Numbered from the stretch's first letter, positions 3,001 through 60,030 are shown. The stretch is DNA of 64,000 bases from an uncultured Oscillospiraceae bacterium (GCA_947624895.1 CANQMK010000001.1:4270-68269), one strand, 5' to 3'. Numbers and translations: made by a program. The notes: generated from the letters alone by a model not told the origin.

Positions 3001-6000
3001 AAAAGCCCGAGGTCACGTTCATCGCCAGCGTGGTCATCCCCGCGGACGCGGACGCCACCGTCTTCGCGGTCTGGGCCGCGGACAAGAACAAAAACGGCAC
3101 GCCCGACTATCAAGAGACCCCTGTCTCGGTCTTCTACGACAAAAACGGCGGCGCGGGTGACGTGCCCGCTCCCCTGATCGACGTTCTCCCCGGCGCGGCG
3201 TATCCCCTGGAGACAACCCCCGCGCTCACGAAGGGCGCCTACGTCTTCGCAGGCTGGAGCAGGACGCGGTATGACGAGGTGATCAAGACGCCGTTGGAAG
3301 AGCGCGACATAGAGATGGCCCGATCCCTGGTGACCAGTCCCTTCACCGTGCCCGCGGGGGTGGGCGACGTTACCCTCTACGCCGTGTACGCCACGGACGC
3401 GGACGCGGACGGCAAGCCCGACTACTGCAAAGACGCCCTGCACGTGGAGTACTACATCAACGGCGGCCAGGTCCGCGAGGGGTACACCGTGGACGAGAGC
3501 GGTATGTTTTACGTGTGCAACGACTATCACCACCCCGGCGACGACGCCACCCTCCTGGCCCTGGAATACGGCGCGATGATGATCTGCCGGGACGGCGCCG
3601 TGCTGATCGGCTGGAGCGCGGCGCCTGAGGACCTGATCACAAGCGAGGCGAGCGTCGACGGGAAGCCGATCAAAGCAGTCAACCTCACCAGCGCGGAATC
3701 AAACGCGAAAGTATACGCGCTCTGGGCGGCGGACGTCAACCACAATAGCATTGCCGACTACCTGGAGACCACCCTCACCCACACCTACCATCGGAATCAG
3801 TACCTTTCCCAGAGCAATGCGTCGACCCTTCCTGCGGGATACTCCCTGCACGTGACCAAAGCCGAGCCCCCGTTCCAGGTGGACATTCTTCCCGGCACGG
3901 GCGTCGAACTGGCCCCCAACGATTACTTCGACTCCGCCGACCTGCTGGACGACAAGGGCCAGGTGGTCGGTCACTATGTCCAGGTGGGCTGGAGCGGCTA
4001 CTCCCACGGCGCCTGTACGTCCCGGATCGATTATGAGAACTGGGTGATCGCAGGGGAGGCCAACGGATATACGGACGAGGACGGCGTCTATTACCGCGTG
4101 ATCTACGATACGCGGTTCCAGAACGCCTTCGCGGTCTGGGCGTCTGACGAGAACGAAAACGGCATCGCGGATTTTAAAGAGACGTACTACACCATCACCC
4201 TTAACATCAATGGCGGGACCGGCGGAGACGATTTCCAGCGCCAGAGCGTGCTGCTCGACGGCGAATGGTTCACCTTCCCCGCCGACCCCATCAAGGCGGG
4301 CTATACCTTCCGGGGCTGGTCTTCCGACGGCGGCAAGACCCTCCGCCAGGCGGGAGACACATTCAGGGTCACCGCCGACGTGACCTATGTGGCCCTGTAT
4401 GACGAGGTCGCGTTTACGGTCACCCTGGACCTGAACGGCGGCACGGCGGGGGACGACTTCGCAGCCAGCAATCCCGTCAATGCGGGCGAGAGCTTCACCT
4501 TCCCCGCGGACCCCACAAAGGCGGGCTATACCTTCCTGGGCTGGTCCGCTGAGGGTGACGAAAACCTCTACAAGGCCGGGGACACCGTCACAGTCACCGC
4601 CGACGTGACCTACACGGCGCAATACGAGGCGGTCGCCGCGCCCAAGACGTTCCAGGTCACCCTGGACCTGAACGGCGGCACAGCGGGGGAGGGCTTCACA
4701 ACCAAGAATTCCGTCAAGGAGGGCGAGAGCTTCACCTTCCCCGCCGACCCCACGAAGGCAGGCTATACCTTCCTGGGCTGGTCCGCCGTGGGTGACGAAA
4801 ACCTCTACAAGGCCGGGGACACCGTGGCGGTCACCGCCGACGTGACCTACACAGCCCGGTATGAGGAAGTTGCGGTCACGCCCAAGACGTTCACGGTCAC
4901 CCTGGACCTGAACGGCGGCACAGCGGGGGAGGGCTTCACAGCCAAGAATTCCGTCAAGGAGGGCGAGAGCTTCACCTTCCCCGCGGACCCCACAAAGGAG
5001 GGCTACACCTTCCTGGGCTGGTCCTCCGACGGCGGCAAGACGCTCTACAAGGCTGGGGATACCGTGGCGGTCACCGCAGACGTGACCTACACCGCGCAAT
5101 ATGAGGCGGTCGCCGCGCCCAAGACGTTCCAGGTCACCCTGGACCTGAACGGCGGCACGGAAGGGGAGGGCTTCACGGCCAGCACGACGGTCAAGGAGGG
5201 CGAGAGCTTCACCTTCCCCGCCGATCCCACAAAGGAAGGCTACACCTTCCTGGGCTGGTCCGCTGAGGGCGACGAAACCCTCTACAAGGCGGGGGACACC
5301 GTCACGGTCACCGCCGACGTGACCTACACCGCGCAATATGAGGCGGTCGCCGCGCCCAAGACGTTCACGGTCACCCTGGACCTGAACGGCGGCACGGCGG
5401 GGGACGACTTCGCGACCAGCAATCCCGTCAATGCGGGCGAGAGCTTCACCTTCCCCGCCGACCCCACGAAGGCAGGCTATACCTTCCTGGGCTGGTCCGC
5501 TGAAGGTGACGAAAACCTCTACAAGGCCGGGGACACCGTCACAGTCAACGCCGACGTGACCTACACGGCGCAATATGAGGCGGTCGCCGCGCCCAAGACG
5601 TTCCAGGTCACCCTGGACCTGAACGGCGGCACGGCGGGAGACGACTTCACGGCCAAGAATTCCGTCAAGGAGGGCGAGAGCTTCACCTTCCCCGCCGACC
5701 CCGCAAAGGCAGGCTATACCTTCCAGGGCTGGTCCGCCGCGGGCGACGAAACCCTCTACAAGGCGGGGGACACCGTGGCGGTCACCGCCGACGTGACCTA
5801 CACCGCGCAATATGAGGCGGTCGCCGCGCCCAAGACGTTTACGGTCACCCTGGACCTGAACGGCGGCACGGCGGGGGACGACTTCGCAGCCAGCAATCCC
5901 GTCAATGCGGGCGAGAGCTTCACCTTCCCCGCGGACCCCACAAAGGCGGGCTACACCTTCCTGGGCTGGTCCGCTGAAGGTGACGAAAACCTCTACAAGG

Positions 6001-6788
6001 CCGGGGACACCGTCACGGTCAACGCCGACGTGACCTACACCGCGCGGTGGAACGTGCGGGTCGCCTCGGGCAGCGGCAGCGGCCGGACTCCTTCCCCCGC
6101 CATCGACAGGACGGAACACTACGGCTACATCATCGGCGTGACGGCCCATGAGGTCCGGCCCGAACAGGACATCACCCGGGCGGAGGTCGCCACCATCCTC
6201 TTCCGCCTCCTCACCGACGAGGCCCGGGAGGCCAACTGGAGCGAGACGAGCGGCTTCCCCGATGTGCGGAGCGACGCCTGGTACAACCACGCCGTGGCGG
6301 TGCTCCACAACCTGGGCATCGTCCAGGGTGACGGTCACGGCAGCTTCGATCCCGACGACAAGATCACCCGCGCCGAGGTGGCCGCCATGGTGGTCAGGTT
6401 CTACGAGAAGAGCGAGGGGACCGTCCTTGTCAACCGGTTTACCGACGTGGATGAGACGAAGTGGTATACCCAGGCGGTGCTCCTGGCCGACCACTACGAG
6501 TTGATGCAGGGCGACGGGGACCAGTTCAGGCCGGAGGACCCGCTGACCCGCGCCGAGGCCATGGCGGTGTTCAACCGGCTCCTGGGCCGTAAGCCCCACG
6601 AGGATCATCTGCGCGAGGATATGATCGCCTGGACGGACAACATGGATAAGCGCAAGTGGTACTACGCCGAGGTCCAGGAGGCCACAAACTCCCATACGTG
6701 CGGCGGGGATGTGGTGATCGACGGCGAGACCTACGAGACGTGGGAGAGCGTCGAGCCCATGCGCGACTGGGCCGCGCTGGAGCGCTGA
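1..6788 (+). CDS. Giant cell-surface protein, 5'-truncated by window edge (beta-helix region, Cys-rich repeats, Flg_new-type repeats, C-terminal SLH anchor)
   Basis: Frame open from base 3 to TGA 6786-6788. NGGxIxxN beta-helix-like repeats. Six CxxC...GH units. About 12 repeats with the GYxFxGWS signature. Three SLH-like motifs (ITRAE, WY..AV) in the last ~240 aa. Confidence 0.85.
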   Translation, partial: AFSRLSLALHSLTGGETIYLTDDIKVGFAAKLPDGVGDVTINGQGHTITRDSFVNPNTILTDPELGDEAVMSILMDPGISLAALEDEGEAGAIPQEHYTGAILQVGKGDTVTLQNVTIDGEGQWEIDQEKLEYEKELNKSYDIDVLEDPRGGHPIRELLGNVVSTDSLIKVAGGALILEDVTLENFFAGDGYEDDRHFIDFTSTEDGKLEVTGAGAVFQHNASRSGVCIGNTDKNEIDLGGCTTMEDNYCYGGNGGLVVAMEGTQVYMDEGTKILNNVAADTNGVFVQLHKKTDGVKDGDNKGETYAKLHMNGGEIGHNVGLRGGSYGWGQTIYLYNGGAFEMNGGEIHDNIGAGISSIYQQPSADALRLNGGWIHGNTCSLTDEGTDWALDIALMNIGNVGEGMTVEQNFVVGAAAILGGYASGDEYLTNDGTIKGNISVYSYFNNEGRVSTVVNNHIIDGNIRLENGSMIKNAENGVITGNVTVRGSLTESAGESSFHNEGDIKGDIELAEGAHLYNSGEVYGNVTVKSGGTLELNCNEEGTVHGGTIHGNVTVYPDGLLYAKVSPALVDGTITLEYEDEEDLARMKEVLHDCGIQCSNIVEKQHAHSEVLDKTVIEPDDDKKCTEPWVTVYVCQTCGKEVSREETTPTGHQYYVEKVDEATCTTGPIEHIRCKLCNAYTSSTAMKIQVGDPNGHTYVENTHLYIPPTEYASGHIYYICTTCGDVLEFEIDKVHEGYTKHSFQNEDGSLKEEAGVLTPPTCTAEGEMTFTCDDCGTTITVPVPAAGHRFPRDPDEYEQIERVESGCTKEGHITYKPRCTVCGEFDTSSGAYTYTVNLPALGHDWSEWENVDSENYFCTTERLQERHCKRMDAEAEAVAEGDGDEEEARIICDDPSNATETRLGGETSHTWDEDNITCLVCGYVSTGHHISYMTNGGIAPQSLADIAGTAYKPGNTESLWRPSSDETLEGGVWTKQTINGQAVFVGWSATNLGETPCEKKPEVTFIASVVIPADADATVFAVWAADKNKNGTPDYQETPVSVFYDKNGGAGDVPAPLIDVLPGAAYPLETTPALTKGAYVFAGWSRTRYDEVIKTPLEERDIEMARSLVTSPFTVPAGVGDVTLYAVYATDADADGKPDYCKDALHVEYYINGGQVREGYTVDESGMFYVCNDYHHPGDDATLLALEYGAMMICRDGAVLIGWSAAPEDLITSEASVDGKPIKAVNLTSAESNAKVYALWAADVNHNSIADYLETTLTHTYHRNQYLSQSNASTLPAGYSLHVTKAEPPFQVDILPGTGVELAPNDYFDSADLLDDKGQVVGHYVQVGWSGYSHGACTSRIDYENWVIAGEANGYTDEDGVYYRVIYDTRFQNAFAVWASDENENGIADFKETYYTITLNINGGTGGDDFQRQSVLLDGEWFTFPADPIKAGYTFRGWSSDGGKTLRQAGDTFRVTADVTYVALYDEVAFTVTLDLNGGTAGDDFAASNPVNAGESFTFPADPTKAGYTFLGWSAEGDENLYKAGDTVTVTADVTYTAQYEAVAAPKTFQVTLDLNGGTAGEGFTTKNSVKEGESFTFPADPTKAGYTFLGWSAVGDENLYKAGDTVAVTADVTYTARYEEVAVTPKTFTVTLDLNGGTAGEGFTAKNSVKEGESFTFPADPTKEGYTFLGWSSDGGKTLYKAGDTVAVTADVTYTAQYEAVAAPKTFQVTLDLNGGTEGEGFTASTTVKEGESFTFPADPTKEGYTFLGWSAEGDETLYKAGDTVTVTADVTYTAQYEAVAAPKTFTVTLDLNGGTAGDDFATSNPVNAGESFTFPADPTKAGYTFLGWSAEGDENLYKAGDTVTVNADVTYTAQYEAVAAPKTFQVTLDLNGGTAGDDFTAKNSVKEGESFTFPADPAKAGYTFQGWSAAGDETLYKAGDTVAVTADVTYTAQYEAVAAPKTFTVTLDLNGGTAGDDFAASNPVNAGESFTFPADPTKAGYTFLGWSAEGDENLYKAGDTVTVNADVTYTARWNVRVASGSGSGRTPSPAIDRTEHYGYIIGVTAHEVRPEQDITRAEVATILFRLLTDEAREANWSETSGFPDVRSDAWYNHAVAVLHNLGIVQGDGHGSFDPDDKITRAEVAAMVVRFYEKSEGTVLVNRFTDVDETKWYTQAVLLADHYELMQGDGDQFRPEDPLTRAEAMAVFNRLLGRKPHEDHLREDMIAWTDNMDKRKWYYAEVQEATNSHTCGGDVVIDGETYETWESVEPMRDWAALER
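4186..6047 (+). repeat. Eight tandem coding repeats, period 237-240 bp (79-80 aa, TxTLDLNGGT...GYTFLGWS...TADVTYTAQYEAVAAPK)
   Basis: Direct reading: units start near 4186, 4410, 4648, 4888, 5125, 5362, 5599, 5836. The last seven are near-identical at DNA level. Confidence 0.9.
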
Positions 6789-8535
6789 GACCCGCGCGCG
6801 GGCGGCGACCATCCGCACGCGCCCCCGCGAGGACGCCGCGAAAAAGCGAATACACACGAAAGGGCCGCCTGTCGAGAGACAGGCGGCCCTTTGTCTTGGC
6901 GGGAAAAGACGCCGCGGCGGAACACGCGCGGGGACGCTCATGAAAAAGTCGCCGTGAGCGAACGCTCACGGCGACGTGGTGGCCCCCAGGAGAATTTGTA
7001 AGAACCCCAGGGCCATCGCATACAACTTCTTCCGGGGAGTTCGGGTCGTCCTTGTCTGTAAGGGTGAAGCTCAAAATTTCGTCCTTGTCTGTGTAGTAAT
7101 AATGGATCTCGATTTTGTCATCCCATAGATAGACCGCCTTAACGAATGTGTCAATGAGCCTCTTTTGGTACTCCTTACTTTCCACGGCACCATCCCGGAA
7201 CTGTTCCATGGACCAGATGATGCGCTCCTTCTCAACATGCCTCTCCTCCTGGGCCGCCTTGGCCAGCACAATGGTTTTCTCCAGCTCGGCGATTTCTCCC
7301 TCCAGTTCCAACAGGCGATCTTTCGTGGTGACGGTGAAAATGCCCTGCTCGATGGCGGTCATAATGTTTTTGACCGCCTTCCTGTTTTGGGACAGCTCCG
7401 CTTCCAGCCTGTCGATTTCCTCTTTACTGCCTGACTGCTCCAGTATTTTGATTGTTCCGTCGGCTATCCACTCTATCACATCATCCCGGAGGATAAACCG
7501 CTGGGTCAACTCGGCCACCGTTCGCTCGATGAACTCCTTTTTTACACTCTTCTTCTGGCATCCGCCGCCTCTCAGGTGTCCGTTACAGGTATAGTAATAG
7601 TGCTTGCTCCCAGTGTGGCTGGTGCCGGATATGCCGACCATGTAGGACTTGCAATAACCGCAGTGCAATTTCCCAGTGAGGAGATAATCCCCACTTTCCC
7701 GGTGCTTTCCTCTCGGATTTTTCTTCGTGGTCAAATGCCGTTGCATTTTGTAGAACACCTCCTTCTCGATGATTGGAGGGATGCCGCACTCATTGACATA
7801 GCCTGAGTGACGATATACGCCGATATAATTGTCGTTGGTGCAGAGACGATGAAAGCTGTTTTTATTCCAGGGCTTCTTCTGCTTTGTCTTGATCCCCCTG
7901 GCGTTGAGATCGGCGGCAATCGAGGCGAAGGACTCCCCATCCAGCACTCTGCGGTAGATCTCCCGGACAATGGCCGCCTCTGCCTCATCGATGGCGTATT
8001 TCCCGTCCGGCCCTCTGACATAGCCGAGCGGGAGAGATCCATTGACCTTGCAATTCCTGGCGTTGTCCTCCATGCCGCGCTTGATGTCCTCTCCCATGTT
8101 CTCGGAGTAGAACTGATTTACATTCATCATAGTACGCAGGGCAAAGCGGCCGGCGGCGGTGTTGCCGAATTCCTCTTTGGCATATAGGGTCTCAATGCCA
8201 AGCCTTGCCAGCCTGTCCTCATAGCTGAGAGCGTGGAGCATATTCCGTGCGATGCGGTTCGATTTGTAGGCTATGACTACCGCAAACTCACGTTTCTCCG
8301 CGTCCCGAAGCATTCGCTGGAAGTTGGGCCGCTTATCCGTTTTCCCGGTGATGGCCTTGTCGGCGTAGACCCGGAGCACCTTGATGTGCTGGGCGACGGC
8401 GAAGGCCATGCACTCCTCGACCTGCTGCTCGATGCTCTCTTCCTTTTGCGCATGAGATGAAAATCTGGCATATATCACGCCTGGCCTTTCGTCCGCCATC
8501 TCCGCGGAGCCCATTCTGCGCGGCAAAAACATCAC
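6571..8535 (-). CDS. Large serine recombinase (prophage integrase) with about 150-aa non-homologous C-terminal read-through
   Basis: VIYARFSS..Q catalytic Ser region, resolvase core, recombinase/zinc-ribbon region (CGYC...C..HLRGGGC), coiled coil. Likely start is M at 8499 or 8514. After about 7000 the ORF becomes Arg/Pro-rich antisense of host DNA. Confidence 0.85.
   Translation of the reverse strand: MMFLPRRMGSAEMADERPGVIYARFSSHAQKEESIEQQVEECMAFAVAQHIKVLRVYADKAITGKTDKRPNFQRMLRDAEKREFAVVIAYKSNRIARNMLHALSYEDRLARLGIETLYAKEEFGNTAAGRFALRTMMNVNQFYSENMGEDIKRGMEDNARNCKVNGSLPLGYVRGPDGKYAIDEAEAAIVREIYRRVLDGESFASIAADLNARGIKTKQKKPWNKNSFHRLCTNDNYIGVYRHSGYVNECGIPPIIEKEVFYKMQRHLTTKKNPRGKHRESGDYLLTGKLHCGYCKSYMVGISGTSHTGSKHYYYTCNGHLRGGGCQKKSVKKEFIERTVAELTQRFILRDDVIEWIADGTIKILEQSGSKEEIDRLEAELSQNRKAVKNIMTAIEQGIFTVTTKDRLLELEGEIAELEKTIVLAKAAQEERHVEKERIIWSMEQFRDGAVESKEYQKRLIDTFVKAVYLWDDKIEIHYYYTDKDEILSFTLTDKDDPNSPEEVVCDGPGVLTNSPGGHHVAVSVRSRRLFHERPRACSAAASFPAKTKGRLSLDRRPFRVYSLFRGVLAGARADGRRPRAGLSAPARPSRAWARRSPTSRRSRRRSPHPRRTYGSLWPPGPRRSTTCAYPCCPSRRSYPRADDPRGAYGPGAG
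6861..6897 (+). terminator. Intrinsic terminator of the surface protein gene
   Basis: Perfect 13-bp stem AGGGCCGCCTGTC/GACAGGCGGCCCT, loop GAGA, followed by TTGTCTT. Confidence 0.75.
6943..6975 (-). terminator. Minus-strand intrinsic terminator lying inside the integrase reading frame
   Basis: 13-bp stem GTCGCCGTGAGCG/CGCTCACGGCGAC with a 2-nt loop. On the minus strand it is followed by TTTTT (plus-strand AAAAA 6943-6947). Confidence 0.65.
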
Positions 8536-29707: not shown

Positions 29708-29785
29708 AAGTTGTCCCGCCATGTCCTTGTGGTTCCCGGCGATATGTGTCAGAATGGCACCTGTAAAATCCTACATCAAGCCAGG

Positions 29786-29817
29786 CTGCCACCCTTCGGG
29801 GTGGCAGTCATTCTTTT
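29786..29817 (+). terminator. Intrinsic terminator
   Basis: CTGCCACCC-TTCG-GGGTGGCAG followed by TCATTCTTTT. Confidence 0.75.
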
Positions 29818-29927
29818 GGGAAGGAGGTTTTGGCCGCCGTGTTACTCCTTGCGCGGTGGGCCGGCGCCGGGTCTGGTGGACGCCAACACCAGACAGCGGA
29901 CGCACACAACAAAGGAGGAAAACCATC

Positions 29928-30932
29928 GTGTTTTCGCGCATCAAAAGCAAGTTCAAGCAGAACCCCACCGCATACTATGCCCTCAGCATAGCGGCATCGT
30001 GGGCCGGCGCCGGGTCACTTATGAACTCGACCACGCTGGCCAACACGCTGGGCGTTGTCCCGGCGCTTATCTGGTGTATCTTCAACACCCTGGCCTGCAT
30101 CGTCTTCGGGCTGGTCATTTGGAAACTGCCTACGGTCAGGGAGATCATGCGGACGAAGCCGTGCCGCCTGGTGCTGGCCTTGTTCAGCATTTTCCAGATC
30201 TGGCTGTGCATGACGGCCATCTCCGAGGCGTGGGCCTCCACGCCGCTGGGCCAGGTGGGTGGCATGATATTGACCTACGCTGTCACGCTGGGCTTCATCA
30301 TGGCGCTGTATCGCCGCGGCATTATCGCCAACATCATGACGGACAACGGCGGCATGTGGGTCATATACGCTCTGGTGGTCGCCCTGTACCTCGCCTCTGT
30401 GGTGATCGCCGGCAACAAGGTGGTGGACCTCCCGGCAGGGATGGAGACCGGAAACCTGTTGCAAGGGCTGTATAAGGGGTTGCTGTTACTGCCTGGGCCG
30501 TTTACCTATCCCTACTTCTTCAAGCTCCTGGACTACAACGAGCGCAACGAGGAGCAGGTCAGCCGTGTGGACATTACCAAGGCGTTCATTTACGGCGGGA
30601 TCGGCTTTGGCGTCTATTTGTTCTTTGCGTTCTCCCTGATTTTCACCGGGCTGTCCCCGGCGCTCAACATCTGCAAGGCGGTGTTGCTCTCTGCGCTGGC
30701 CATTTCCTCGCTTTCTTCCTTCGTCTACTCGGAGTTTGCCGTGTTTGGCAGAGGGGTGGGGCTTGGCATCAACCTCTTTTCCCTGGCTTTTTGGGCCTGG
30801 GTCGCCCCGCTGGGGGTGATGGGCGTTTGGACGCTCATGGCCGAGAGCAGGGTCTACCTGATCGTCGCCATCCTCCTCGCCGCCCTTATTAAGAGGGTCG
30901 TCGACAGGAGAAGGGGGGCGGCGGTCAAATGA
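29928..30932 (+). CDS. Polytopic membrane protein, transporter-like (about 10 TM, SSS/LeuT-like N-terminal motif)
   Basis: GTG 29928, 9 nt after AAAGGAGG. Hydrophobic spans throughout. ALSIAASWAGAGSLMNS resembles SSS TM2. Confidence 0.55.
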   Translation: MFSRIKSKFKQNPTAYYALSIAASWAGAGSLMNSTTLANTLGVVPALIWCIFNTLACIVFGLVIWKLPTVREIMRTKPCRLVLALFSIFQIWLCMTAISEAWASTPLGQVGGMILTYAVTLGFIMALYRRGIIANIMTDNGGMWVIYALVVALYLASVVIAGNKVVDLPAGMETGNLLQGLYKGLLLLPGPFTYPYFFKLLDYNERNEEQVSRVDITKAFIYGGIGFGVYLFFAFSLIFTGLSPALNICKAVLLSALAISSLSSFVYSEFAVFGRGVGLGINLFSLAFWAWVAPLGVMGVWTLMAESRVYLIVAILLAALIKRVVDRRRGAAVK

Positions 30933-31528
30933 AGATCGTCAAGAAGTCCCTGACCGACCTCCACCCGCCCGAGCGGAATATCCGCAAGCACACCGACAAG
31001 CAGATCGCCGAGTATGTCCGTTCTCTGGAGATGTTCGGTCAAATCAAGCCTGTTGTCATTGACGAGGCCGGGGAGATCATCGCCGGGAATGGCCTCTACC
31101 TGGCCCTTGTCCAGATGGGGGCCAAGGAGTGCGACTGCTACATCATCTCCGGGATGACCGAGGCCCAGAAGAAAAAGCTCATGATGGCCGATAACCGGGT
31201 CTACGAGCTGGGCATCACCGACATGGACGCCTTTGAGGAGATCATCAAGTCTCTGGACGGTGACGTTGATGTGCCCGGCTGGGATGCCGACCTCCTGGAC
31301 ATGATGAACGCCGCCGCTGCCGACGTAGATGATATGGTCAGCGGCTACGGCGCCTTTGATCAGGGCGATGTGGACAAGGTATCGGAGCGGCCCGCCGCTT
31401 CCACCGGCGGACAGCAACCCACTCCGCCCCAGCCCGCCGGCGAGGCGCCGCAGGATGCGATCGCCGAAAAGCCCGGGGTGGAGAAGTTCATCACCTGCCC
31501 GAAATGCGGTGAGCGGATATGCCTCTAA
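30929..31528 (+). CDS. ParB/Srx N-terminal domain protein with C-terminal zinc knuckle
   Basis: LHPPERNIRKH...IIAGNGLYLAL; C-terminus CPKCGERIC. ATGA coupling to the membrane protein gene. Confidence 0.65.
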   Translation: MKIVKKSLTDLHPPERNIRKHTDKQIAEYVRSLEMFGQIKPVVIDEAGEIIAGNGLYLALVQMGAKECDCYIISGMTEAQKKKLMMADNRVYELGITDMDAFEEIIKSLDGDVDVPGWDADLLDMMNAAAADVDDMVSGYGAFDQGDVDKVSERPAASTGGQQPTPPQPAGEAPQDAIAEKPGVEKFITCPKCGERICL

Positions 31529-32661
31529 AGAAGCTGACCAGCAGCATCAATGTGCTGGACGCCGCCAAGACCCGCATCAAGAACCTGTTTTCCACCGGCG
31601 TGAAGGTGTATCTCTCCTTTTCGTGCGGTAAGGATAGCTTGTGCCTGTCCAGCCTGACATACGACCTTATCATGGCCGGGGAGATCGACCCCAAGCAACT
31701 CACCATCGTCTTCATCGACGAGGAGGGCCTTTACACCTCCATGGTGGACGCCGCCCACCGCTGGCGAAAGAAGTTTGCCTCGGTGGGCGTACCGTTTCTG
31801 TGGTTTTGCCTGCCGTTCAAGCAGGTGTCTGTGCTGGACCACCTGACCACCTCGGAGAGCTGGATAACCTGGGAACCCGGAAAAGAGGATGAGTGGATCA
31901 GGAAGCCACCGCCTTTTGCCATCATGTCCCACCCGGTGCTTCACTACCCGGGGGAGATGAACTACCAGACCTTCTGCCGGAGGGCGTTTTCCGATGGGGT
32001 GCAGATGATAGGGCTTCGAACGTCGGAGTCCTTGACCCGCCTCCAAGTCCTTGCCCGGTTGGACATGACAAAGGTGACACCCGGCGGGGCGTTCTACCCC
32101 ATCTACGACTGGCGGGACAAGGACATCTGGCTCTACATCCGGGAGCGCAACCTGGAATTCCCGGAGATCTACATGAGGCTCTATGAGGCCGGGGTGAAGA
32201 AGAACAACCTCCGGCTCTGTGCCTTCTTCGGGGACTGCGGTACCCAGGGCCTCCGCTGGATCGCCGAAACGGACAACGAGCTTTGGCAGCGTATCGAGCG
32301 CCGGGAGCCAAACGCCTACCTGGTGCTACTCTATTGGAACAGCGAGATGTTCCGCCGCTCCAGCGATAAGCGCAAGGAGCTGGAGGAGGGCCAGGCCAAG
32401 AAGGACTACAAGGCCCTCTGCAAAGACATCCTGTTCCTGAACACGGACAAGTACACCATCGCCTCGGACACGAAGAAGAACCTCCGTAGCTGGCGTGGGC
32501 TTTTCATCAAGACCTACGGCGTGGCCCAGGAGAAGCACTACAAGCGGATGTACGAGGGGCTTCTGTACGGAGACCCCAAGATGCGCATACTCCGCATCCT
32601 CTGGACGCAGATATACAACGACTACAACCCGAAGAAGAAGGTGAAACGGCATGGAGATTGA
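31519..32661 (+). CDS. IbrA-like PAPS-reductase-superfamily PP-loop protein (DUF3440-type)
   Basis: PP-loop SFSCGKDS; 380 aa; followed by an IbrB-like ParB gene. Confidence 0.6.
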   Translation: MPLKKLTSSINVLDAAKTRIKNLFSTGVKVYLSFSCGKDSLCLSSLTYDLIMAGEIDPKQLTIVFIDEEGLYTSMVDAAHRWRKKFASVGVPFLWFCLPFKQVSVLDHLTTSESWITWEPGKEDEWIRKPPPFAIMSHPVLHYPGEMNYQTFCRRAFSDGVQMIGLRTSESLTRLQVLARLDMTKVTPGGAFYPIYDWRDKDIWLYIRERNLEFPEIYMRLYEAGVKKNNLRLCAFFGDCGTQGLRWIAETDNELWQRIERREPNAYLVLLYWNSEMFRRSSDKRKELEEGQAKKDYKALCKDILFLNTDKYTIASDTKKNLRSWRGLFIKTYGVAQEKHYKRMYEGLLYGDPKMRILRILWTQIYNDYNPKKKVKRHGD

Positions 32662-33175
32662 CGTCTTCTCCCCGCTCGCCTCCCTCCAATGGGTGAGCCG
32701 GGATAAGCTGCGCGCAAATGACTACAACCCCAACAAGGTCAGCGAGGACAACCTGCAGCTCCTCACCCAGTCCATCCTGACCAACGGCTGGACGCTCCCC
32801 ATCGTGGTGCGCCCGGACTACACCATCATCGACGGTTTCCACCGCTGGACGGTATCAGGGCGTGAACCGCTCCTGACAAAGCTGGGAGGGAAAGTTCCTG
32901 TGGTCATTGTCGACCACGGAGAGGACAGCTCGGCCGATGTCTATGGCACCATCACCCACAACAGGGCAAGAGGAACGCATCTGCTCGAACCTATGAAGGC
33001 CATCGTGAAGAAGCTCATGGACGAGGGCAAGAGCGTACAGGAGATCGGGAAACAACTGGGAATGAAACCAGAAGAAGTCTTCCGGCTCTCCGATTTCACC
33101 AGGGATGAGTTCCTGGCCCTCATGACCAAAGGGGTGCGTGGATACAGCAAAGCGGAGGTCGTCGTGAAGGTATAG
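32651..33175 (+). CDS. IbrB-like ParB/Srx domain protein
   Basis: L..NDYNPN.V....L..L..SI...G...PIVV....IIDGFHRW. Confidence 0.6.
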   Translation: MEIDVFSPLASLQWVSRDKLRANDYNPNKVSEDNLQLLTQSILTNGWTLPIVVRPDYTIIDGFHRWTVSGREPLLTKLGGKVPVVIVDHGEDSSADVYGTITHNRARGTHLLEPMKAIVKKLMDEGKSVQEIGKQLGMKPEEVFRLSDFTRDEFLALMTKGVRGYSKAEVVVKV

Positions 33176-33468
33176 AGACAGAGGGACAACAGGAGAGGGC
33201 GTAGGGGCCGCTTAGGGCGGCTTCTACGCTCTCCCCATGGTTACACATACCCAACAGGCTGAATGGACGCTCCTGGGCGTTGCAACCCCAAACAGGGGCA
33301 CAGCGGACGCCATCGACCGAAAAAAGGTACTGTGACGGGGCGGCCCCATTGGTTGCGGGCGCTTCGACCCCGAAATTCGTGTAGTTAGTGGGGGCAAAAA
33401 TGGGGTGTTTCCGTTCCAGAACGGATGCCACTATGGACAAAACGGCACAGAGAGGGGAGGGAAAAGGT

Positions 33469-34032
33469 ATGGCAGAGGCGAGGATTACGCCCGATACAGA
33501 GGTCAGCACTACGGAGCTGGCCTGTGTCTTGGGCATAACCGGGCGGCGTGTTCGCCAGTTGGCCGAGGACGGCCAGCTCGAAAGGACCGGCAAGGGGGTC
33601 TTCAACTTGGCCGCCTCTGTTCAGCGGTACATCGCCGGTCAGTCCAGGCCGACCACCAGCGAGGAAGAGGCCAAGATGGAAAAGGGCAAGCGCCAGGCCG
33701 AGGTCACGCTGAAAGCGGCAAAGGCGGAGATGGCCCGGTTGGAGATGAAGGAGCTCCAGGGCAAGATGCACCGCGCCGAGGACGTGAAGGCCATGACAGA
33801 GGACTTGGTCTACACCACCCGCTCCGCATTGATGGCCCTGCCCGGCCGCCTGGCGGTGGATGTGTGCGCCGCACAGACTGCCGCCGAAGCCTCCGAGATC
33901 ATCCGTAGGGAGGTCGCCCTGGTCATGAGGGAGTTGGCCAGTTACCGCTATGACCCCAAGAAATACGAGGAGCGGGTGCGGGAGCGGCGAAGCTGGGACA
34001 CCGGGCAGGGGCGTGATGACGATGACGACTGA
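33469..34032 (+). CDS. Terminase small subunit (Nu1-like HTH)
   Basis: N-terminal HTH STTELACVLGITGRRVRQLAEDG; position before GpA-type TerL. Confidence 0.6.
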   Translation: MAEARITPDTEVSTTELACVLGITGRRVRQLAEDGQLERTGKGVFNLAASVQRYIAGQSRPTTSEEEAKMEKGKRQAEVTLKAAKAEMARLEMKELQGKMHRAEDVKAMTEDLVYTTRSALMALPGRLAVDVCAAQTAAEASEIIRREVALVMRELASYRYDPKKYEERVRERRSWDTGQGRDDDDD

Positions 34033-35968
34033 ACTTGACGCCATCCGTCTAAACCGGGTCATCGCCGAAGTAATGGCCGGAATGCAGCCACCCGCCAACC
34101 TGACCGTGAGCCAGTGGGCCGAGAAGCGGCGCCGCCTCTCCACCGAGAGCAGCGCAGAGCCAGGGCCGTGGCGCACCTCCCGGACGCCCTACCTCCGGGA
34201 GCCTATGGACGCCTTCACCGACGCCAAAGTGCGGCACATCGTCATGGTGGCCGCGTCCCAGGTCGGCAAGAGCGAGTTTCTCAATAACGGCATCGGATAC
34301 ATCATCGACGAGGATCCTGGCTCCATCCTGTTCGTCCACCCGACGACCATTGACGCCAAGGAATACTCCAAACTGCGGATTGCCCCGATGATACGGGACT
34401 GCCCGACGCTGCGGAAGAAGGTGTCCGACCCCAAGAGCCGGGACAGCTCAAACACGATCCTGCAAAAGACATACCCCGGCGGCATCCTGACCATGTGCGG
34501 CTCCACCGAGGCCCACGCCCTGGCATCCAAGCCGATCCGCTATGTATTCGGCGACGAGCGTGACCGATGGGCGACGAGCGCCGGCAACGAGGGCGACCCC
34601 TGGGATCTGGCCATGGCCAGACAGACCACCTTCTACAACGCCAAGGCTGTAGAAGTCAGCACCCCGACCATCAAGAACGCCAGCGCCATCGAGGCCGCCT
34701 ATGCGACCGGCACGATGGAGCGGTGGAAGTCCCGCTGCCCCCATTGCGGCGAATACCACGAAATCCAGTGGGCGGACATCCGCTTTGAATATGACGAGGT
34801 GGTGGTGGCCGGCAAGACCACCTACAAGATCAAGTCGGTCTACTATGTCTGCCCCGGGTGCGGGTGCGTGTCCGACGAGCAGACCATGAAGCGCCAGCCC
34901 GCGCGCTGGGAGGCGGACAACCCCGACGCCTATGAGCAGGGGACGCGCTCTTTCTGGCTCAATGCCTTTGTCAGCCAGTGGGCCACCTGGTCGTCCATCG
35001 TCCTGAAGTTTCTGAATGCCACCGGCAGCAGCAAAAAGCTACAGGTCGTCTACAACACCTGCTTCGGCCAGCTCTGGGAGGACCGGGGCGATCTGGAGGA
35101 TGAGGACAGCCTGATGGCCCGCCGGGAGATGTACGGCGTGGACGCCGAGGGGAACCCCGTGGACGAACTGCCCGACGGTGTGCTGGTGCTGACCGCCGGG
35201 GTGGACACCCAGGATGATCGCATGGAGTACGAGATCATCGGCCACGGCCATTTTGGGGAGACCTGGGGCTTGGAGGTCGGGGTGGTCATGGGCCGCCCGG
35301 ATGACCCCGCCGTGTGGGAGAAACTGGACGCCCTGGTTTTTGACCGGGTGCTCCACTTCCGGGACGGCCTGGGGCTGAAGATGAGCATCAGCTTCGTGGA
35401 TGAGGGCGGGCACTTCACCCAGGAGGTGCGGCAGTTCTGCCGCGCCCGACAGGGCAAGAAGGTGTTTGCCGTCAAGGGTATGCCCGGCCCGGATAGGCCC
35501 TACACCAGCCCGCCCAAGAAGATGAAGATCGTGGTCCGTCAGGTGGTCGTCGGGACCTGCTGGCAGTATCAGATCGGGGTAGACGCCGGGAAGCAGATCA
35601 TCATGGACAACCTGCGGGTGCAGACCCCCGGCCCGAAATACTGTCACTTTCCCCGGCGGGACGACTACGGCTCCGCCTACTTCACTGGCCTGCTCTCCGA
35701 GCGGCTGGAGTACGACGCCGCCAAGAAGCAACCTTGGATTTGGAAGAAGATCCCCGGCCATGAGCGCAACGAGCGGTTGGACTGCCGCAACTATGGCATG
35801 GCGGCCTTCAAGGTTCTCCCGAAAGACCTTGACGACATCGACCGCAAGCTGAAGGCCGCGCGGGGACAGCACGCCACGGATGGCGCCCCGGCCGTGGCGG
35901 CGACACCAAAGCGCAAGAAGCGCAAGAGATCCGGGGGCGGTATAGACAAATACTTTGACGCCTGGTAA
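34016..35968 (+). CDS. Terminase large subunit, lambda GpA family
   Basis: Walker A ASQVGKSE, TVSQWAE..R.L, RCPHCG zinc motif; 650 aa. Confidence 0.85.
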   Translation: MTMTTELDAIRLNRVIAEVMAGMQPPANLTVSQWAEKRRRLSTESSAEPGPWRTSRTPYLREPMDAFTDAKVRHIVMVAASQVGKSEFLNNGIGYIIDEDPGSILFVHPTTIDAKEYSKLRIAPMIRDCPTLRKKVSDPKSRDSSNTILQKTYPGGILTMCGSTEAHALASKPIRYVFGDERDRWATSAGNEGDPWDLAMARQTTFYNAKAVEVSTPTIKNASAIEAAYATGTMERWKSRCPHCGEYHEIQWADIRFEYDEVVVAGKTTYKIKSVYYVCPGCGCVSDEQTMKRQPARWEADNPDAYEQGTRSFWLNAFVSQWATWSSIVLKFLNATGSSKKLQVVYNTCFGQLWEDRGDLEDEDSLMARREMYGVDAEGNPVDELPDGVLVLTAGVDTQDDRMEYEIIGHGHFGETWGLEVGVVMGRPDDPAVWEKLDALVFDRVLHFRDGLGLKMSISFVDEGGHFTQEVRQFCRARQGKKVFAVKGMPGPDRPYTSPPKKMKIVVRQVVVGTCWQYQIGVDAGKQIIMDNLRVQTPGPKYCHFPRRDDYGSAYFTGLLSERLEYDAAKKQPWIWKKIPGHERNERLDCRNYGMAAFKVLPKDLDDIDRKLKAARGQHATDGAPAVAATPKRKKRKRSGGGIDKYFDAW

Positions 35969-55588: not shown

Positions 55589-55617
55589 ATCACACAATCT
55601 GATTGGAGGAAACCGAT

Positions 55618-57165
55618 ATGGCAATCCAGCAAGTGGACGGCGCCCTGTCCATCGTCATCAAGGGCAAAGAATATCTGCTCATGCCCATCACAAGGGGCGG
55701 CAACATCGAGAACGACGCCGTGACTATTGACGCGCTGGCCGACAATGACGAGATCCTCATTTGGGATGCCAGCGACAAGAGCACGGCCAAAAAGACCACC
55801 TGGGTCGAGGTCAAGCAGTCTGTGCGGGAGAGCATCCCGATCCTCTATCCGCAGATCGTGGTGTCCGTCTCCACCGGCTCCTCGGTCACCTGCTCCAACG
55901 GCGGCACCACCAAGACTGCCCAGGCCGTCGGCGGCGTGGCCACCTTTGAGGTCACCGAGTACGGCGCCTGGACGGTCAAGGCCTCCCTGTCAGGTCAGGA
56001 GTCCTCCAGCGAGGTCATCCAGGTGGATGCCGTCAAAAAATACCCTGTCACGCTCCACTACGCCTCTGTGTTCGGCGTCTGCTGGGATCCGTTGAATCCG
56101 TCCACGGCCCTGGCCCGGCTCACCCAGTCGAGCGACCCCAACGGCTTTGTCACAGTGAATATCAGCACCGAGCCTTCGCCCGCCGTTGGCACCGGGTCGG
56201 GCAGTTCGCCGTTTGACCGCTATGCGCCGTGGAGCCAGATGGACGAATACAACATCGTCAACGGCACTGTCGGCCCGTGCAAGGGGGACGCTGGTTTTTC
56301 CCGCGGGCGTGACACGATGGTTTATATTCCGGAGTTCTGGTTCAAGTTCATGGAGACCGGCGGCAAGCGGTATTTCTACATCGCCGACAAGCCCAAGGAC
56401 GGCTTCGGGCTGCATCCTGGCTCCGGCAAGTATCTGAGCCGCTACTCCATGAGTGAGGACGGTATGTCTAAGACCGGGGTTGCTCCGCTCACGGAGATCA
56501 CCCGCGGGGAGGCCAGGGAGAAAGCCAGGGCCAAGGGCGAAAAGTGGAGCCAGTACGACTACATCACCTGGAACGCCGTGTGGCTGCTCTACCTGGTCGA
56601 GTTCGCCGACTGGGACTGCCAAAAGAAAATCGGTCGAGGCCGTGTTGACATGACGTGGTCGGATGGCAAGGCCGACAACGGCGGTACCGACACCATGTCC
56701 TACCACACCGGGCGGGCCGCCGGCGAAGACGGCAAGACCTGCATTCAGTACCGCCACCTGGAGAATATATGGGGAAATGTCTTCTACTGGATCGACGGTA
56801 TCAACATCAACGTCTTTGACGTGTACATCTGCACGGACCACAAGCTGTACGACGATGATACGGATGTCGGCTACGAATGTATCTACACGACCGACATCAA
56901 TGATGACGGCGGCTACATCAGCGCCATCGCCTCACCCCCGGAAAACGCTCCGTGGGCGTTCCTCCCATCTGGTATCAGTGGGAGCGAGACGACCTACATC
57001 CCGGATTATGGCTATTACTGGGGCGAAAGCGAAGAGTGGTATTTGCCGTGCGGCGGCGGCGGCTGGTACGACCGCTCGGATGCCGGCCTCTTCCAGTTCG
57101 GCGCCGACTATCTGTCGGATGAGACGGGCTCGAGCGACGGCGCGCGACTCCTTTTTAACCCCTAA
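55618..57165 (+). CDS. DGR target: receptor-binding tail protein with C-terminal CLec/FGE-sulfatase-like variable domain
   Basis: YRHLENIWGNVFYWIDG motif. The last 40 codons are the VR matching the TR. Confidence 0.8.
   Translation: MAIQQVDGALSIVIKGKEYLLMPITRGGNIENDAVTIDALADNDEILIWDASDKSTAKKTTWVEVKQSVRESIPILYPQIVVSVSTGSSVTCSNGGTTKTAQAVGGVATFEVTEYGAWTVKASLSGQESSSEVIQVDAVKKYPVTLHYASVFGVCWDPLNPSTALARLTQSSDPNGFVTVNISTEPSPAVGTGSGSSPFDRYAPWSQMDEYNIVNGTVGPCKGDAGFSRGRDTMVYIPEFWFKFMETGGKRYFYIADKPKDGFGLHPGSGKYLSRYSMSEDGMSKTGVAPLTEITRGEAREKARAKGEKWSQYDYITWNAVWLLYLVEFADWDCQKKIGRGRVDMTWSDGKADNGGTDTMSYHTGRAAGEDGKTCIQYRHLENIWGNVFYWIDGININVFDVYICTDHKLYDDDTDVGYECIYTTDINDDGGYISAIASPPENAPWAFLPSGISGSETTYIPDYGYYWGESEEWYLPCGGGGWYDRSDAGLFQFGADYLSDETGSSDGARLLFNP
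57042..57153 (+). repeat. DGR variable region (VR)
   Basis: 112-nt gap-free match to 57407-57518. 13 mismatches, all at TR adenines. Confidence 0.9.
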
Positions 57166-57172
57166 TGGGGGA

Positions 57173-57192
57173 CCGGGGGCCGCAGCCCCCGG
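57173..57192 (+). promoter_or_regulatory. GC hairpin downstream of VR (DGR target-recognition hairpin/cruciform candidate)
   Basis: CCGGGGGC-CGCA-GCCCCCGG, 8 nt after the stop codon. Absent after the TR. Confidence 0.65.
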
Positions 57193-57406
57193 AAACCTAT
57201 CAGCAAGCACCACGTTTTTGGTGAGTGGCGCAGGGTGCGGCAACGGCCCTTTATACCGAGCGAAGCGAGGTCGGCGCCAATTTTGAAAATAACAATATTC
57301 GTTATTTCATCTCAAATCCATGGGCGGCGGGACGACCGCAGCCTATAATTCAGGCAGGGATTGCCTACGCTCTGCGTCGGGCCTTGTGCTTCGGATGGGT
57401 GGGCCG

Positions 57407-57518
57407 TTTGCCGTACGGCGGCGGCAACTGGAACAACCGCTCGAATGCCGGCCTCTTCCAGTTCAACGCCAACTATCTGTCGGATGAGACGAACTCGAAC
57501 GACGGCGCGCGACACCTT
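57407..57518 (+). repeat. DGR template repeat (TR)
   Basis: Asn-codon (AAC)-rich invariant copy of the VR, 127 nt upstream of the RT start. Confidence 0.9.
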
Positions 57519-57645
57519 GTTTGCACGACAACTATATGCGTAGGTTCTCCCCCACCGCTTGGTGAAAATATTGCCGAGTAGGACAGGGCTCAGTAGGTTT
57601 ATTCTCGACCAGCCTTGCAGGCAAACAAGGAGTGTGCTTCCTACC

Positions 57646-58872
57646 ATGCCGAAACGAGTAGGCAACATCTACGCCCGGATGGAGGCCCCCGACTTCATCC
57701 GAAGGTGTATCGCGATCGGGACAAGAGACAGCAAGAAGCGGCGCCGCCGGGACGTGCGCCGTGTACTTGCCGACCTGGACGGCCATGTGGCCACGATGCA
57801 ACGCATTGTGCGGGAGCGGTCCTTTTGCCCTCGCCAGCCGAACCAGAGGACGATCTACGACGTCAGCAGCCAGAAGAACCGGGACACCAACAGTGTCCCG
57901 TTTTTCCCGGACGCCCTCATGCACATCATGGAAGTCCAAGCCATGATGGATGTCCTCATGCGTGGGATGTGCCACTGGTCGTGTTCCTCTGTCCCTGGCC
58001 GGGGAGGGAGGCGGGTGTACCTCCGGCTCAAGAGCGCCATGAAGAACGACCCGAAGGGGACACGGTACGCCGCCGAACTGGACGTCAAGAGCTACTATCC
58101 GAGCCTGCCGCTGGACAGGCTCATGGAGGCGTTCGAGCGTAAGATCAAGGACAGGGAATTTTTGCTTCTGCTGGCCCTCTCCCTGACCTGCCGCCCCATC
58201 TCGCTCCAGGAGGCCAAAGACCAGGGCCTCACATGGAGGGACATCACCCAGGGGCGCCGGGGGCTGTTCATCGGCTTCTACCTCTGCCAGTGGGCGGCCA
58301 ACTACTACCTAGAGCCGCTCGACCGTTTCATCATGACCCTGCCCGGCGTGAAGTACATGACCCGCCACATGGACAACATCACCCTGCTGGGGCCGAGCAA
58401 GCGAGATCTCCACAAGGCGGTGAACGCCATCCGGGACTTTATGGGCCGGGAACTGGGGCTGACCATGAAGGAGAACTGGCAGGTCTACCGCACCAGCTTC
58501 ACCGCCGCCGTGGAGAAGCGCCACCGCCTGCTGACGGAGAGGCAACGGAGGCTACGCCGCCCCCGCATGGTGTCGGCAGTGGGCTACCGCTTCGCCCACA
58601 CCCACGTCACCATCCGCAAGCGGAACTTCCTCCGGCTCACCCGGCAGGCCCGCCGGACGAAAAAGCGGATAGAGGCGAAGAAGCCCATATCCCCGCGGCT
58701 GGCCGCCGGCCTTTTGAGTCGGATCGGCCAGCTCAAGCACAGCAACAGCTACAACGTGAGGACGAAATACATAGACCCCATCGGGGTCAAAGTTCTAAAG
58801 GAGGTCGTGCGAAATGAGAGTGCGAGGAAGTGTTGCTCCCAGCAACGCCTTTACAGTGGAGGAGCAGCCTAA
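57646..58872 (+). CDS. DGR-type reverse transcriptase with atypical HMDN catalytic box
   Basis: RT motifs 1-7 are readable. IGFYLCQWAANYYL corresponds to the DGR IGxxxSQ..AN.YL motif. Motif C reads RHMDN. Confidence 0.8.
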   Translation: MPKRVGNIYARMEAPDFIRRCIAIGTRDSKKRRRRDVRRVLADLDGHVATMQRIVRERSFCPRQPNQRTIYDVSSQKNRDTNSVPFFPDALMHIMEVQAMMDVLMRGMCHWSCSSVPGRGGRRVYLRLKSAMKNDPKGTRYAAELDVKSYYPSLPLDRLMEAFERKIKDREFLLLLALSLTCRPISLQEAKDQGLTWRDITQGRRGLFIGFYLCQWAANYYLEPLDRFIMTLPGVKYMTRHMDNITLLGPSKRDLHKAVNAIRDFMGRELGLTMKENWQVYRTSFTAAVEKRHRLLTERQRRLRRPRMVSAVGYRFAHTHVTIRKRNFLRLTRQARRTKKRIEAKKPISPRLAAGLLSRIGQLKHSNSYNVRTKYIDPIGVKVLKEVVRNESARKCCSQQRLYSGGAA

Positions 58873-59591: not shown

Positions 59592-60014
59592 TTGAGCCTC
59601 GATGAAATTCTTGCCAGGGGAGGAGCGGCGCTTACCGTCATTATGACGCTTGTCCAGATCTCTCCCATCAAAATTTACCCGTGGTCGTGGCTGGCTAAGG
59701 CCTTTGGCCGGGCCATCAACGCGGAACTGATCGCGAAGATCGACGCGCTGGAAAAGAAGGTCGAAAAGCTCCACTCCAGGGACGGAGAGAAGGAGGCCAT
59801 CGACCAACGCAACCGCATCCTCCTATTTGCGGATGAGGCCGTGCGTAACATCAAGCACTCCGAGGAGCACTTCAACCAGATCCTCAGAGACATTACAGAG
59901 TACGAGGCGTTCTGTAACGCCCACAAAGACTTTGAGAATGAACGGGTGGTTTTGACCTGCGCCAGGATCAAGGAGATCTACAAGAGGTGCCTTGAGACGG
60001 GCGATTTTTTGTGA
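59592..60014 (+). CDS. Membrane-anchored protein of lysis region (holin-associated candidate)
   Basis: TTG 59592 after AGGAGG (the track start 59535 is less likely). One TM, AALTVIMTLVQISPI, then a helical domain. Confidence 0.4.
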   Translation: MSLDEILARGGAALTVIMTLVQISPIKIYPWSWLAKAFGRAINAELIAKIDALEKKVEKLHSRDGEKEAIDQRNRILLFADEAVRNIKHSEEHFNQILRDITEYEAFCNAHKDFENERVVLTCARIKEIYKRCLETGDFL

Positions 60015-60030
60015 GAAAGGAGTGATCACC

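Follow-up and report, generated by a model that had tools for sequence, protein, structure and literature searches.

The pairing of a ParB-family protein with an enzyme that resembles 3'-phosphoadenosine 5'-phosphosulfate (PAPS) reductase is a known theme, represented by IbrAB and by predicted modification modules, and is functionally uncharacterised. We know of no function for the common phage genes of this kind (IbrA-like and NinC-like) or for the likewise common cysH-like accessory gene of type IV-B CRISPR-Cas systems. Here we analyse a four-gene cassette in a 64,000-nucleotide stretch of DNA (hereafter the window) from an uncultured Oscillospiraceae bacterium (GCA_947624895.1, CANQMK010000001.1:4270-68269). 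In order, the cassette encodes a membrane protein (MEM), a ParB-like protein (ParB1), a PP-loop protein related to PAPS reductase (PAPSL) and a second, IbrB-like ParB protein. Its host is a temperate siphovirus-type prophage of a Clostridia gut bacterium, and across phages the gene for the membrane protein, a predicted transporter, travels almost exclusively with PAPS-reductase-like genes.

The IbrA/IbrB pair of the Escherichia coli ECOR-9 island shares with the cassette a PAPS-reductase-type PP-loop gene followed by an overlapping small ParB_N gene. The same names are carried by genes of S. thermophilus phages and of the phage FP_Taranis, whose IbrA and IbrB are 73% and 82% identical to the window orthologs, and in many phages such genes are annotated as 'co-activators of prophage gene expression'. 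The window differs from the E. coli pair in giving no DUF3440 match, in carrying an additional divergent ParB and a transporter, and in its placement at the head of a late operon. A second likeness is to the cysH-like accessory gene of type IV-B systems, which adjoins members of the same transporter family in the loci described below and whose product the PAPSL profile matches at E 6e-9. The type IV-B CysH lacks the CysH catalytic cysteine (PMC8175902), as does PAPSL. The csf1, csf2 and csf3 genes are, however, absent from the window cassette, where the place of the targeting module is taken by ParB proteins, and the type IV-B literature that we found mentions no membrane partner of the cysH-like gene.

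The phosphorothioation systems Dnd, Ssp and BREX type 4 likewise combine an enzyme of the PP-loop superfamily (DndC, SspD or BrxP) with a ParB-superfamily partner (the ParB-like DndB). PAPSL gives partial, weak PADLOC matches to DndC and BrxP (E about 8e-5), but it lies far under the DndC cut-off (12.6 bits against 290.4 for TIGR03183) and has no cysteine cluster, only a single invariant cysteine. No cysteine desulfurase, DndD, DndE or BREX gene adjoins the cassette, which is flanked by a RinA-like gene and terS; every defining feature tested sets it apart from Dnd, Ssp and BREX-4. In the Dpd 7-deazaguanine system, the ParB-like ATPase DpdB aids DpdA in placing a base modification derived from a small molecule in DNA (PMC12839542), whereas the window has no TGT/DpdA homolog and its enzyme is a PP-loop protein. 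NinC of lambda, encoded by the phage but not essential to it, resembles PAPS reductase and has no known role (PMC10695390). It shares a broad PHROG annotation (phrog_424) with an extra short PP-loop gene found in relatives of the cassette but, unlike the window genes, lies in the early nin region, unlinked to ParB genes or a transporter. For the membrane protein, the closest described counterparts are the SLC5/SSS sodium:solute symporters (CHT1, SGLT, PutP) and other LeuT-fold carriers. Its predicted fold matches theirs, and its most conserved residues are at the broken helices TM1 and TM6; MEM differs in having no sequence-family match and in amounting, at 334 residues, to a 10-helix core, the matched structures being about 400-600 residues long.

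Linkage of the transporter to PP-loop genes

The cassette genes are not new. In two Faecalibacterium phages, FP_Taranis and Pioen, all four occur in unchanged order, flanked by a RinA-like activator and terS. The published FP_Taranis genome labels them 'transporter membrane protein', 'nuclease protein', IbrA and IbrB, and has a 'RinA-like transcriptional activator' upstream. An earlier reading of the window from its DNA alone (the original prediction) knew of no described system with such an arrangement in a phage late region, and is not supported on this point. The literature found on IbrA/IbrB, DUF3440, ParB with PAPS reductase, and type IV-B CysH includes no functional study of the cassette or of a membrane partner. 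Within the literature searched, the transporter family itself appears to be undescribed, as does its near-exclusive tie to PAPS-reductase-like enzymes, including the type IV cysH-like gene.

We surveyed 108 loci from IMG/VR and GTDB genomes, drawn from Oscillospiraceae, Faecalibacterium, Lawsonibacter, Selenomonadaceae, Lachnospiraceae and others. Wherever the flank suffices, and apart from rare deletion variants, the transporter is followed by ParB1, PAPSL and the IbrB-like gene, an order kept although transporter identity drops to 42%. In L022 (7999-8787) and about 25 other loci, among them L012, L020, L043 and L094, an extra gene for a 262-residue PP-loop protein (PF01507, phrog_424, motif SAGKDS) lies between the transporter and ParB1, and these cassettes therefore encode two different PAPS-reductase-like enzymes; the window has no such gene. 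More distant transporters, at 20-29% identity, keep the company of PP-loop genes in other arrangements. The locus of P0352, from another phage lineage with a different terminase type (Terminase_4 terS), reads PAPS262-223aa-PAPS373-ParB-MEM-terS, in which the 223-aa protein is a ParB, and that of P0316 reads MEM-PAPS259-150aa-PAPS376-ParB. Three apparent transporter-ParB fusions with a ParB_N domain (P0150, P0166 and P0169) were rejected as proof of coupling, as they are truncated transporters joined to IbrB or ParB1 by internal deletion or frameshifted read-through.

A degenerate DNA pattern scan of viral contigs for the AASWAWG motif yielded 28 further loci. These show the same two architectures and a third, in which ParB is missing and the neighbours of the transporter are a cysH-like PP-loop gene and Csf genes. 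Such type IV-linked (IV-B-like) loci occur on viral contigs L190 (3698-9083), L129, L140, L152, L135/L125, L117 and L165; the cysH-like gene is upstream of the transporter in most of them and downstream in L135/L125. The L190 locus runs Csf1, a small protein, Csf2, Csf3, Cas6, cysH-like protein and transporter, with NCBIfam E values of 3e-18 for Csf1, 2e-16 for Csf2, 1.5e-14 for Csf3, 1e-9 for Cas6 and 6e-23 for CysH, all under the curated cut-offs. The match of the PAPSL profile to the type IV-linked cysH-like protein extends beyond the common core (hhalign probability 95.9).

Linkage was scored where a PAPS-type PP-loop gene lay on the strand of the transporter and no more than 2.6 kb from it, counting only informative transporter clusters. 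By this measure the transporter is accompanied by a PP-loop gene in seven of eight clusters at 50% identity, 22 of 23 at 70% and 42 of 43 at 90%, while a ParB-type gene is present in only four of the eight clusters at 50%. The exception is L169 (5294-8095, minus strand), where a distant transporter near tail-fibre and lysis genes has no PAPS-type neighbour; two genes away is a 403-residue PP-loop protein with the motif SGGIDST and no Pfam family. ParB/PP-loop sets also occur with no transporter. A Riemerella phage has ParB-ParB-PAPS directly ahead of its terminase, and in S. thermophilus phages IbrA-IbrB come behind the lysis genes, at a distance from the terminase. On the strength of the cluster counts, the Csf loci that lack ParB and these transporter-free sets, the transporter and the PP-loop enzyme form the functional pair that is conserved, with the transporter an optional addition to a widespread ParB/PP-loop module. 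Because the linkage outlasts changes of gene order and of phage lineage, and even the replacement of ParB by a Csf module, the two proteins are very probably functionally coupled. A survey of gene neighbourhoods had been proposed with the original prediction, and its outcome ties the transporter to PP-loop genes far past close relatives.

Proteins of the cassette

MEM matches no family in Pfam, NCBIfam, PHROG or PADLOC, its profile returned nothing against PDB sequences, and none of 32 diverse relatives matches a Pfam family; assignment to a known family by sequence was accordingly abandoned. Among 1.84 billion cluster representatives, searched exhaustively with HMMER, relatives fall into only 166 clusters at 50% identity, including full-length relatives at only 20-29% identity. 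The AlphaFold2 model, built from a 54-sequence alignment, has a predicted local distance difference test (pLDDT) score of 90 and a predicted TM-score (pTM) of 0.87. In it, the chain forms about ten membrane helices, and breaks interrupt two of these at residues 26-27 and 186-195. Foldseek, which had been proposed as a check along with Pfam, gives as best match in the PDB the SLC5 choline transporter CHT1/SLC5A7 (E 6e-5, TMq 0.75), followed by Nramp, LAT1, SGLT2, CodB and BetP. The most conserved part of the family alignment is SIAASWAGAGSLMNS; the nearly invariant segments AASWAGxGSLMN (TM1) and LLLPGPFTYPY (TM6) sit at the broken helices, and a Ser/Thr-rich TM8 motif is also conserved (ISSLSS in the window, TSTLDS in distant relatives). 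The model thus predicts a transporter with the 5+5 inverted-repeat LeuT/APC fold and a 10-helix core, belonging to an unclassified family. The SSS/LeuT-like character first read from the sequence holds at the level of fold and not at that of sequence family, where no hidden Markov model matched.

In PAPSL a PAPS_reduct domain is recognised (PF01507, E 7.6e-10), scoring 39.5 bits where 22.5 is required, and the match to phrog_2302 is full-length (E 1e-83). An alignment of distant homologs leaves SxGKDS, FIDEE, W95xC97, GxRxxES..R and PxYDW invariant. The conserved C-terminal catalytic cysteine of CysH (ECGLH) is absent from this alignment, in which C97 is the sole invariant cysteine, as are cysteine clusters and cysteines of the CysH, DndC or TtuA type. 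Against CysH models PAPSL reaches 18 bits, the cut-offs being 154-254, and none of the three non-membrane proteins of the cassette attains the curated cut-off of any CysH, CysD, DndC or ParB partition model. DUF3440 was not detected in PAPSL at E <= 0.1, and the precomputed Pfam domains of its 120 closest homologs are PF01507 only, so that 'IbrA-like' denotes resemblance, not membership. Of the 'IbrA/DUF3440 type' label, the PAPS-reductase domain, the SFSCGKDS loop and the adjoining IbrB gene remain, and the DUF3440 part is lost.

ParB1 hits the ParB-like family phrog_620 (E 3e-49) and, in methyltransferase families, the ParB region at the N-terminus (phrog_498, E 9e-30; PADLOC MTase_II, E 1e-18), but its 14.9 bits against Pfam ParB_N (PF02195) fall under the cut-off. 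As read from its sequence, it carries AGNGLY where ParB proteins have the GxxR box and appears to be a divergent ParB/Srx-fold protein with a degenerate box. The ParB/Srx call made for it, together with the CPKCGERIC ending, stands through phrog_620 and not through ParB_N. The IbrB-type identification of the fourth protein was sound: it exceeds the PF02195 cut-off (30.2 bits against 26.3), matches phrog_2159 (E 3e-70), keeps the DGFHRW box intact and is encoded by the cassette gene with the strongest conservation, loci sharing 75-88% identity.

Leader RNA and the late operon

The four overlapping plus-strand genes lie where the original prediction had placed them (Table 1), with overlaps of 4, 10 and 11 nt at successive junctions, and the gap that it noted ahead of terS is also present. 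Its description of the cassette as insulated did not survive. A terminator scan of the gap detected no terminator-like site between the IbrB-like gene and terS, and terS and terL are transcribed in the same direction as the cassette. The hairpin upstream, which had been called a strong terminator, is real but belongs to a conserved leader RNA. The RinA-like protein encoded ahead of this leader also has weak matches to DUF1492 and Sigma70_r4.

The entire 220-nt spacer between the RinA-like gene and the transporter is conserved across loci whose proteins are down to 42-50% identity. In order, it consists of an extended -10-like block, a box (GTAAAATCCTAATCAAGCC), hairpin 1 with a U-tract, an invariant GGAAGGAGG, hairpin 2, a third hairpin and the ribosome-binding site; the loop of hairpin 2 holds an invariant CUCCUU(U)G. 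A sigma-70 scan, which requires a -35 hexamer, does not report the candidate -10 element. The terminator scan found three sites in the region against 5.1 expected and is, on its own, weak evidence for hairpin 1. In a 19-sequence alignment, however, covariation is seen at 10 of 11 pairs of hairpin 1, which is real because its stem covaries in relatives, and at all eight pairs of hairpin 2. Paired cells reach 94.5% against 79% in shuffles, none of 500 shuffles being as good, and slid controls give 41-56%. Hairpin 1 fits the form of an intrinsic terminator, a GC-rich hairpin followed by a U-tract, and termination there is putative; it is missing from the otherwise conserved leaders of L008 and L088. 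The window leader folds into three hairpins with a minimum free energy of -77.3 kcal/mol (z -4.37) and has no Rfam match, either at gathering scores or at E <= 10. Both strands of a possible AAGGAG/CUCCUU pseudoknot are invariant, so that the alignment neither supports nor contradicts it.

A pattern scan found at least 120 leader copies on viral contigs. Nearly all of the 80 copies that were read follow a RinA-like gene. They are followed first by the transporter 46 times, by a ParB1-like gene 23 times, by PAPSL three times and by a gene outside the labelled families eight times; where PAPSL comes first, the order is PAPSL-IbrB-ParB1-terS. Since the first gene varies, the leader belongs to the start of the late operon and not to the transporter. 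Because it follows RinA-like genes with or without the transporter, we read the four cassette genes as the opening ones of the late (packaging) operon and not as an insulated unit. Two other explanations of the leader were discarded: a riboswitch ahead of the transporter, given the lack of an Rfam match and the occurrence of the leader before ParB or PP-loop genes with no transporter, and a small upstream open reading frame (ORF) after the Shine-Dalgarno-like GGAAGGAGG, whose start codon and reading frame are not conserved across loci. The leader may act through antitermination or translational control of the late operon. In phage lambda, the Q-PR'-tR' region is laid out as regulator gene, promoter, early terminator and late genes, an arrangement that the present layout would recall by analogy.

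Table 1. Coordinates of the cassette, its leader and other features, counted from the first letter of the window
Feature	Position	Strand	Remarks
RinA-like late transcriptional regulator, 139 aa	29288-29707	+	phrog_36 'transcriptional regulator', E 5e-14
Candidate extended -10 promoter element	29745-29755	+	TGTGTCAGAAT; TGTGnTATnnT in relatives; conserved block, alignment A6
Structured leader RNA	29763-29927	+	Alignments A6 and A7
Leader 5' box			GTAAAATCCTACATCAAGCC
Leader hairpin 1 and U-tract	29784-29809		11 pairs, then ATTCTTTT; the 'terminator' of the original prediction
Leader Shine-Dalgarno-like element	29818-29827		GGGAAGGAGG
Leader hairpin 2	29834-29859		Loop with anti-Shine-Dalgarno-like CUCCUU at 29845-29850
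Leader hairpin 3	about 29864-29902
True Shine-Dalgarno sequence of first gene	29911-29918		AAAGGAGG
MEM, membrane protein, 334 aa	29928-30932	+	GTG start
ParB1, 199 aa	30929-31528	+	C-terminal end FITCPKCGERICL (CPKCGERIC)
PAPSL, PP-loop protein, 380 aa	31519-32661	+	Motif SFSCGKDS
IbrB-like ParB, 174 aa	32651-33175	+	Motif IIDGFHRW
Spacer ahead of terS, 290 nt	33176-33465	+	One or two small ORFs there in relatives
terS	33466-34032 (alternative GTG start 33388)	+	phrog_57, E 4e-30
terL	33950-35968	+	Homologs in related loci after terS
Large serine recombinase	6571-8535	-	Domain matches: Resolvase, Recombinase, Zn_ribbon_recom
Amidase_2 endolysin	59992-60924	+	Domain match
DGR variable repeat	57042-57156		3' end of 520-aa ORF
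DGR template repeat	57407-57521		13 of 14 mismatches at template adenines
DGR RT-18 RNA	57553-57632		Rfam RF03021, 63.8 bits
DGR reverse transcriptase gene	57640-58872

The serine recombinase and the endolysin probably mark the two ends of the prophage. The genome has a G+C content of about 60%, with dips to 0.48-0.53 near 7-10 kb and 62-63 kb of the window. At its left edge, beyond the prophage, a very long ORF (2236 aa) occupies 78-6788 on the plus strand. The window also contains a diversity-generating retroelement (DGR) at 55603-58872.

Possible activity of the cassette

In the scheme that we favour, MEM would be a minimal LeuT-fold secondary transporter acting together with the PP-loop ATP-pyrophosphatase. 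The transporter would carry a small solute into the infected cell, and PAPSL would spend ATP to adenylate an acceptor and join the solute to it, or would otherwise process the solute. Adenylation of an acceptor is general chemistry of PP-loop enzymes, as in TilS, QueC, ThiI and GMP synthetase. The two ParB/Srx-fold proteins may serve as DNA-binding or nucleoside triphosphate-dependent targeting partners. The acceptor is most likely a nucleic acid, since both partner modules bind nucleic acids and the phage version adjoins packaging genes; it would probably be replicated phage DNA just ahead of packaging, and the product a modification of virion DNA. Import of a substrate by the transporter, as the original prediction proposed, is reasonable, and the DNA-modification or counter-defence role that it attached to the cassette is hypothetical. 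The direction of transport, the supply of solute to the PP-loop enzyme, the nucleic-acid target, the late timing and an anti-restriction benefit are elements that we infer. That the target is a nucleic acid seems somewhat probable, while the fuller proposal of an ATP-dependent nucleic-acid modification with an imported solute, most likely on progeny DNA, is tentative.

Several observations weigh against this scheme. The first descriptions of IbrA and IbrB cast them as activators of prophage gene expression and not as modification enzymes. In the literature found, no modification chemistry, substrate or target has been demonstrated for IbrA-like, NinC-like or type IV-B cysH-like proteins, and for this reason the argument for a nucleic-acid target is drawn only from the company of ParB and Csf proteins. 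The structural model of PAPSL is moderate (pLDDT 72), and Foldseek relates it to generic PP-loop enzymes at TM-scores of 0.25-0.34 (NcsA, TtuA, LarE, the PAPS domain of FAD synthase, CysD and TilS), with NAD or GMP synthetases also among its relatives; given these results and marginal PDB profile matches, assignment to a specific PP-loop subfamily by structure was dropped. Two deletion variants retain the transporter and have lost PAPSL (L060 and L075, the latter having lost ParB1 too). IbrA-like genes occur in 158 phage records and the transporter in four; with the ParB/PP-loop set so common in its absence, the transporter is not essential to the core activity. Finally, the surveyed loci come mostly from related gut Clostridia phages, so that part of the synteny is inherited and not independently selected.

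The generic relatives of PAPSL also bear on an explanation in which the PP-loop enzyme adenylates an imported metabolite or makes an exported product (a cofactor, a nucleotide analogue or a sulfur compound, for example) and the ParB or Csf proteins only regulate or localise the pathway. Some of those relatives, namely LarE, FAD synthase, CysD and the NAD or GMP synthetases, act on small molecules; the conserved minimal unit is a PP-loop gene with a transporter, not ParB with a transporter; CysH models give the type IV-linked partner its best score (E 6e-23); and published annotations label these genes as host-metabolism genes. The catalytic C-terminal cysteine of CysH is nevertheless absent, and constant association with a DNA-binding ParB or an RNA-guided Csf complex, beside terminase genes, would be odd for a purely metabolic role. 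We therefore consider such a pathway unlikely.

The position of the cassette between a RinA-like activator gene and terS could instead indicate control of transcription or packaging, the ParB proteins being clamps or nickases that co-activate late genes, in keeping with the name IbrAB, or ready DNA for the terminase, with PAPSL an accessory and the transporter a passenger. This would agree with the annotation of relatives as co-activators of prophage gene expression, with the ParB-ParB-PAPS set that precedes the terminase of the Riemerella phage in the absence of a transporter, and with the standing of IbrB as the most conserved gene of the cassette. It leaves unexplained, however, why transporter and PP-loop genes track each other where ParB is absent or the order has changed; the IbrA-IbrB genes of S. 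thermophilus phages lie after the lysis genes, away from the terminase, and the intact, invariant PP-loop argues for catalysis and not for a scaffold. Such control is, in our estimation, less likely again. A membrane effector, by analogy with the nucleotide-activated effectors of type III CRISPR systems, in which a triggered PP-loop enzyme would make an adenylated signal that opens the membrane protein for phage exclusion, lysis timing or abortive infection, would suit the pairing of the transporter with the accessory enzyme of type IV Csf loci, which have no nuclease and require some kind of effector, and its place first or last in the module with overlaps that imply co-expression, but is quite improbable given that the fold amounts to an entire LeuT-type carrier core, conserved at broken TM1 and TM6 in residues typical of substrate sites, and not to a pore or holin, the lack of a soluble signal-sensing domain in the MEM model, and a location at the start of a late structural operon that implies constitutive late expression.

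The modification scheme has a broader and more doubtful form, in which the transporter and the PP-loop enzyme would make up a portable catalytic core for a new kind of nucleic-acid modification. A small molecule, once imported, would pass through an adenylated intermediate and be attached to DNA (or RNA) at sites that an exchangeable targeting module selects: a ParB pair in the late operons of phages, an RNA-guided Csf complex in type IV-B-like CRISPR-Cas loci. If this is true, one chemistry would explain both the IbrAB and PAPS reductase genes of phages and the cysH-like accessory gene of type IV-B systems.

Phage copies of PAPS-reductase-like genes are often labelled as sulfur-metabolism genes. 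A transporter that travels with these enzymes in both settings offers a handle on them, as it suggests that the pathway probably consumes a transported small molecule. The cultured Faecalibacterium phages FP_Taranis and Pioen, which carry the full cassette, make the question directly testable. Should a DNA modification be found, it would represent a new anti-restriction chemistry in abundant phages of the human gut and would provide a lead to the role of type IV-B systems.

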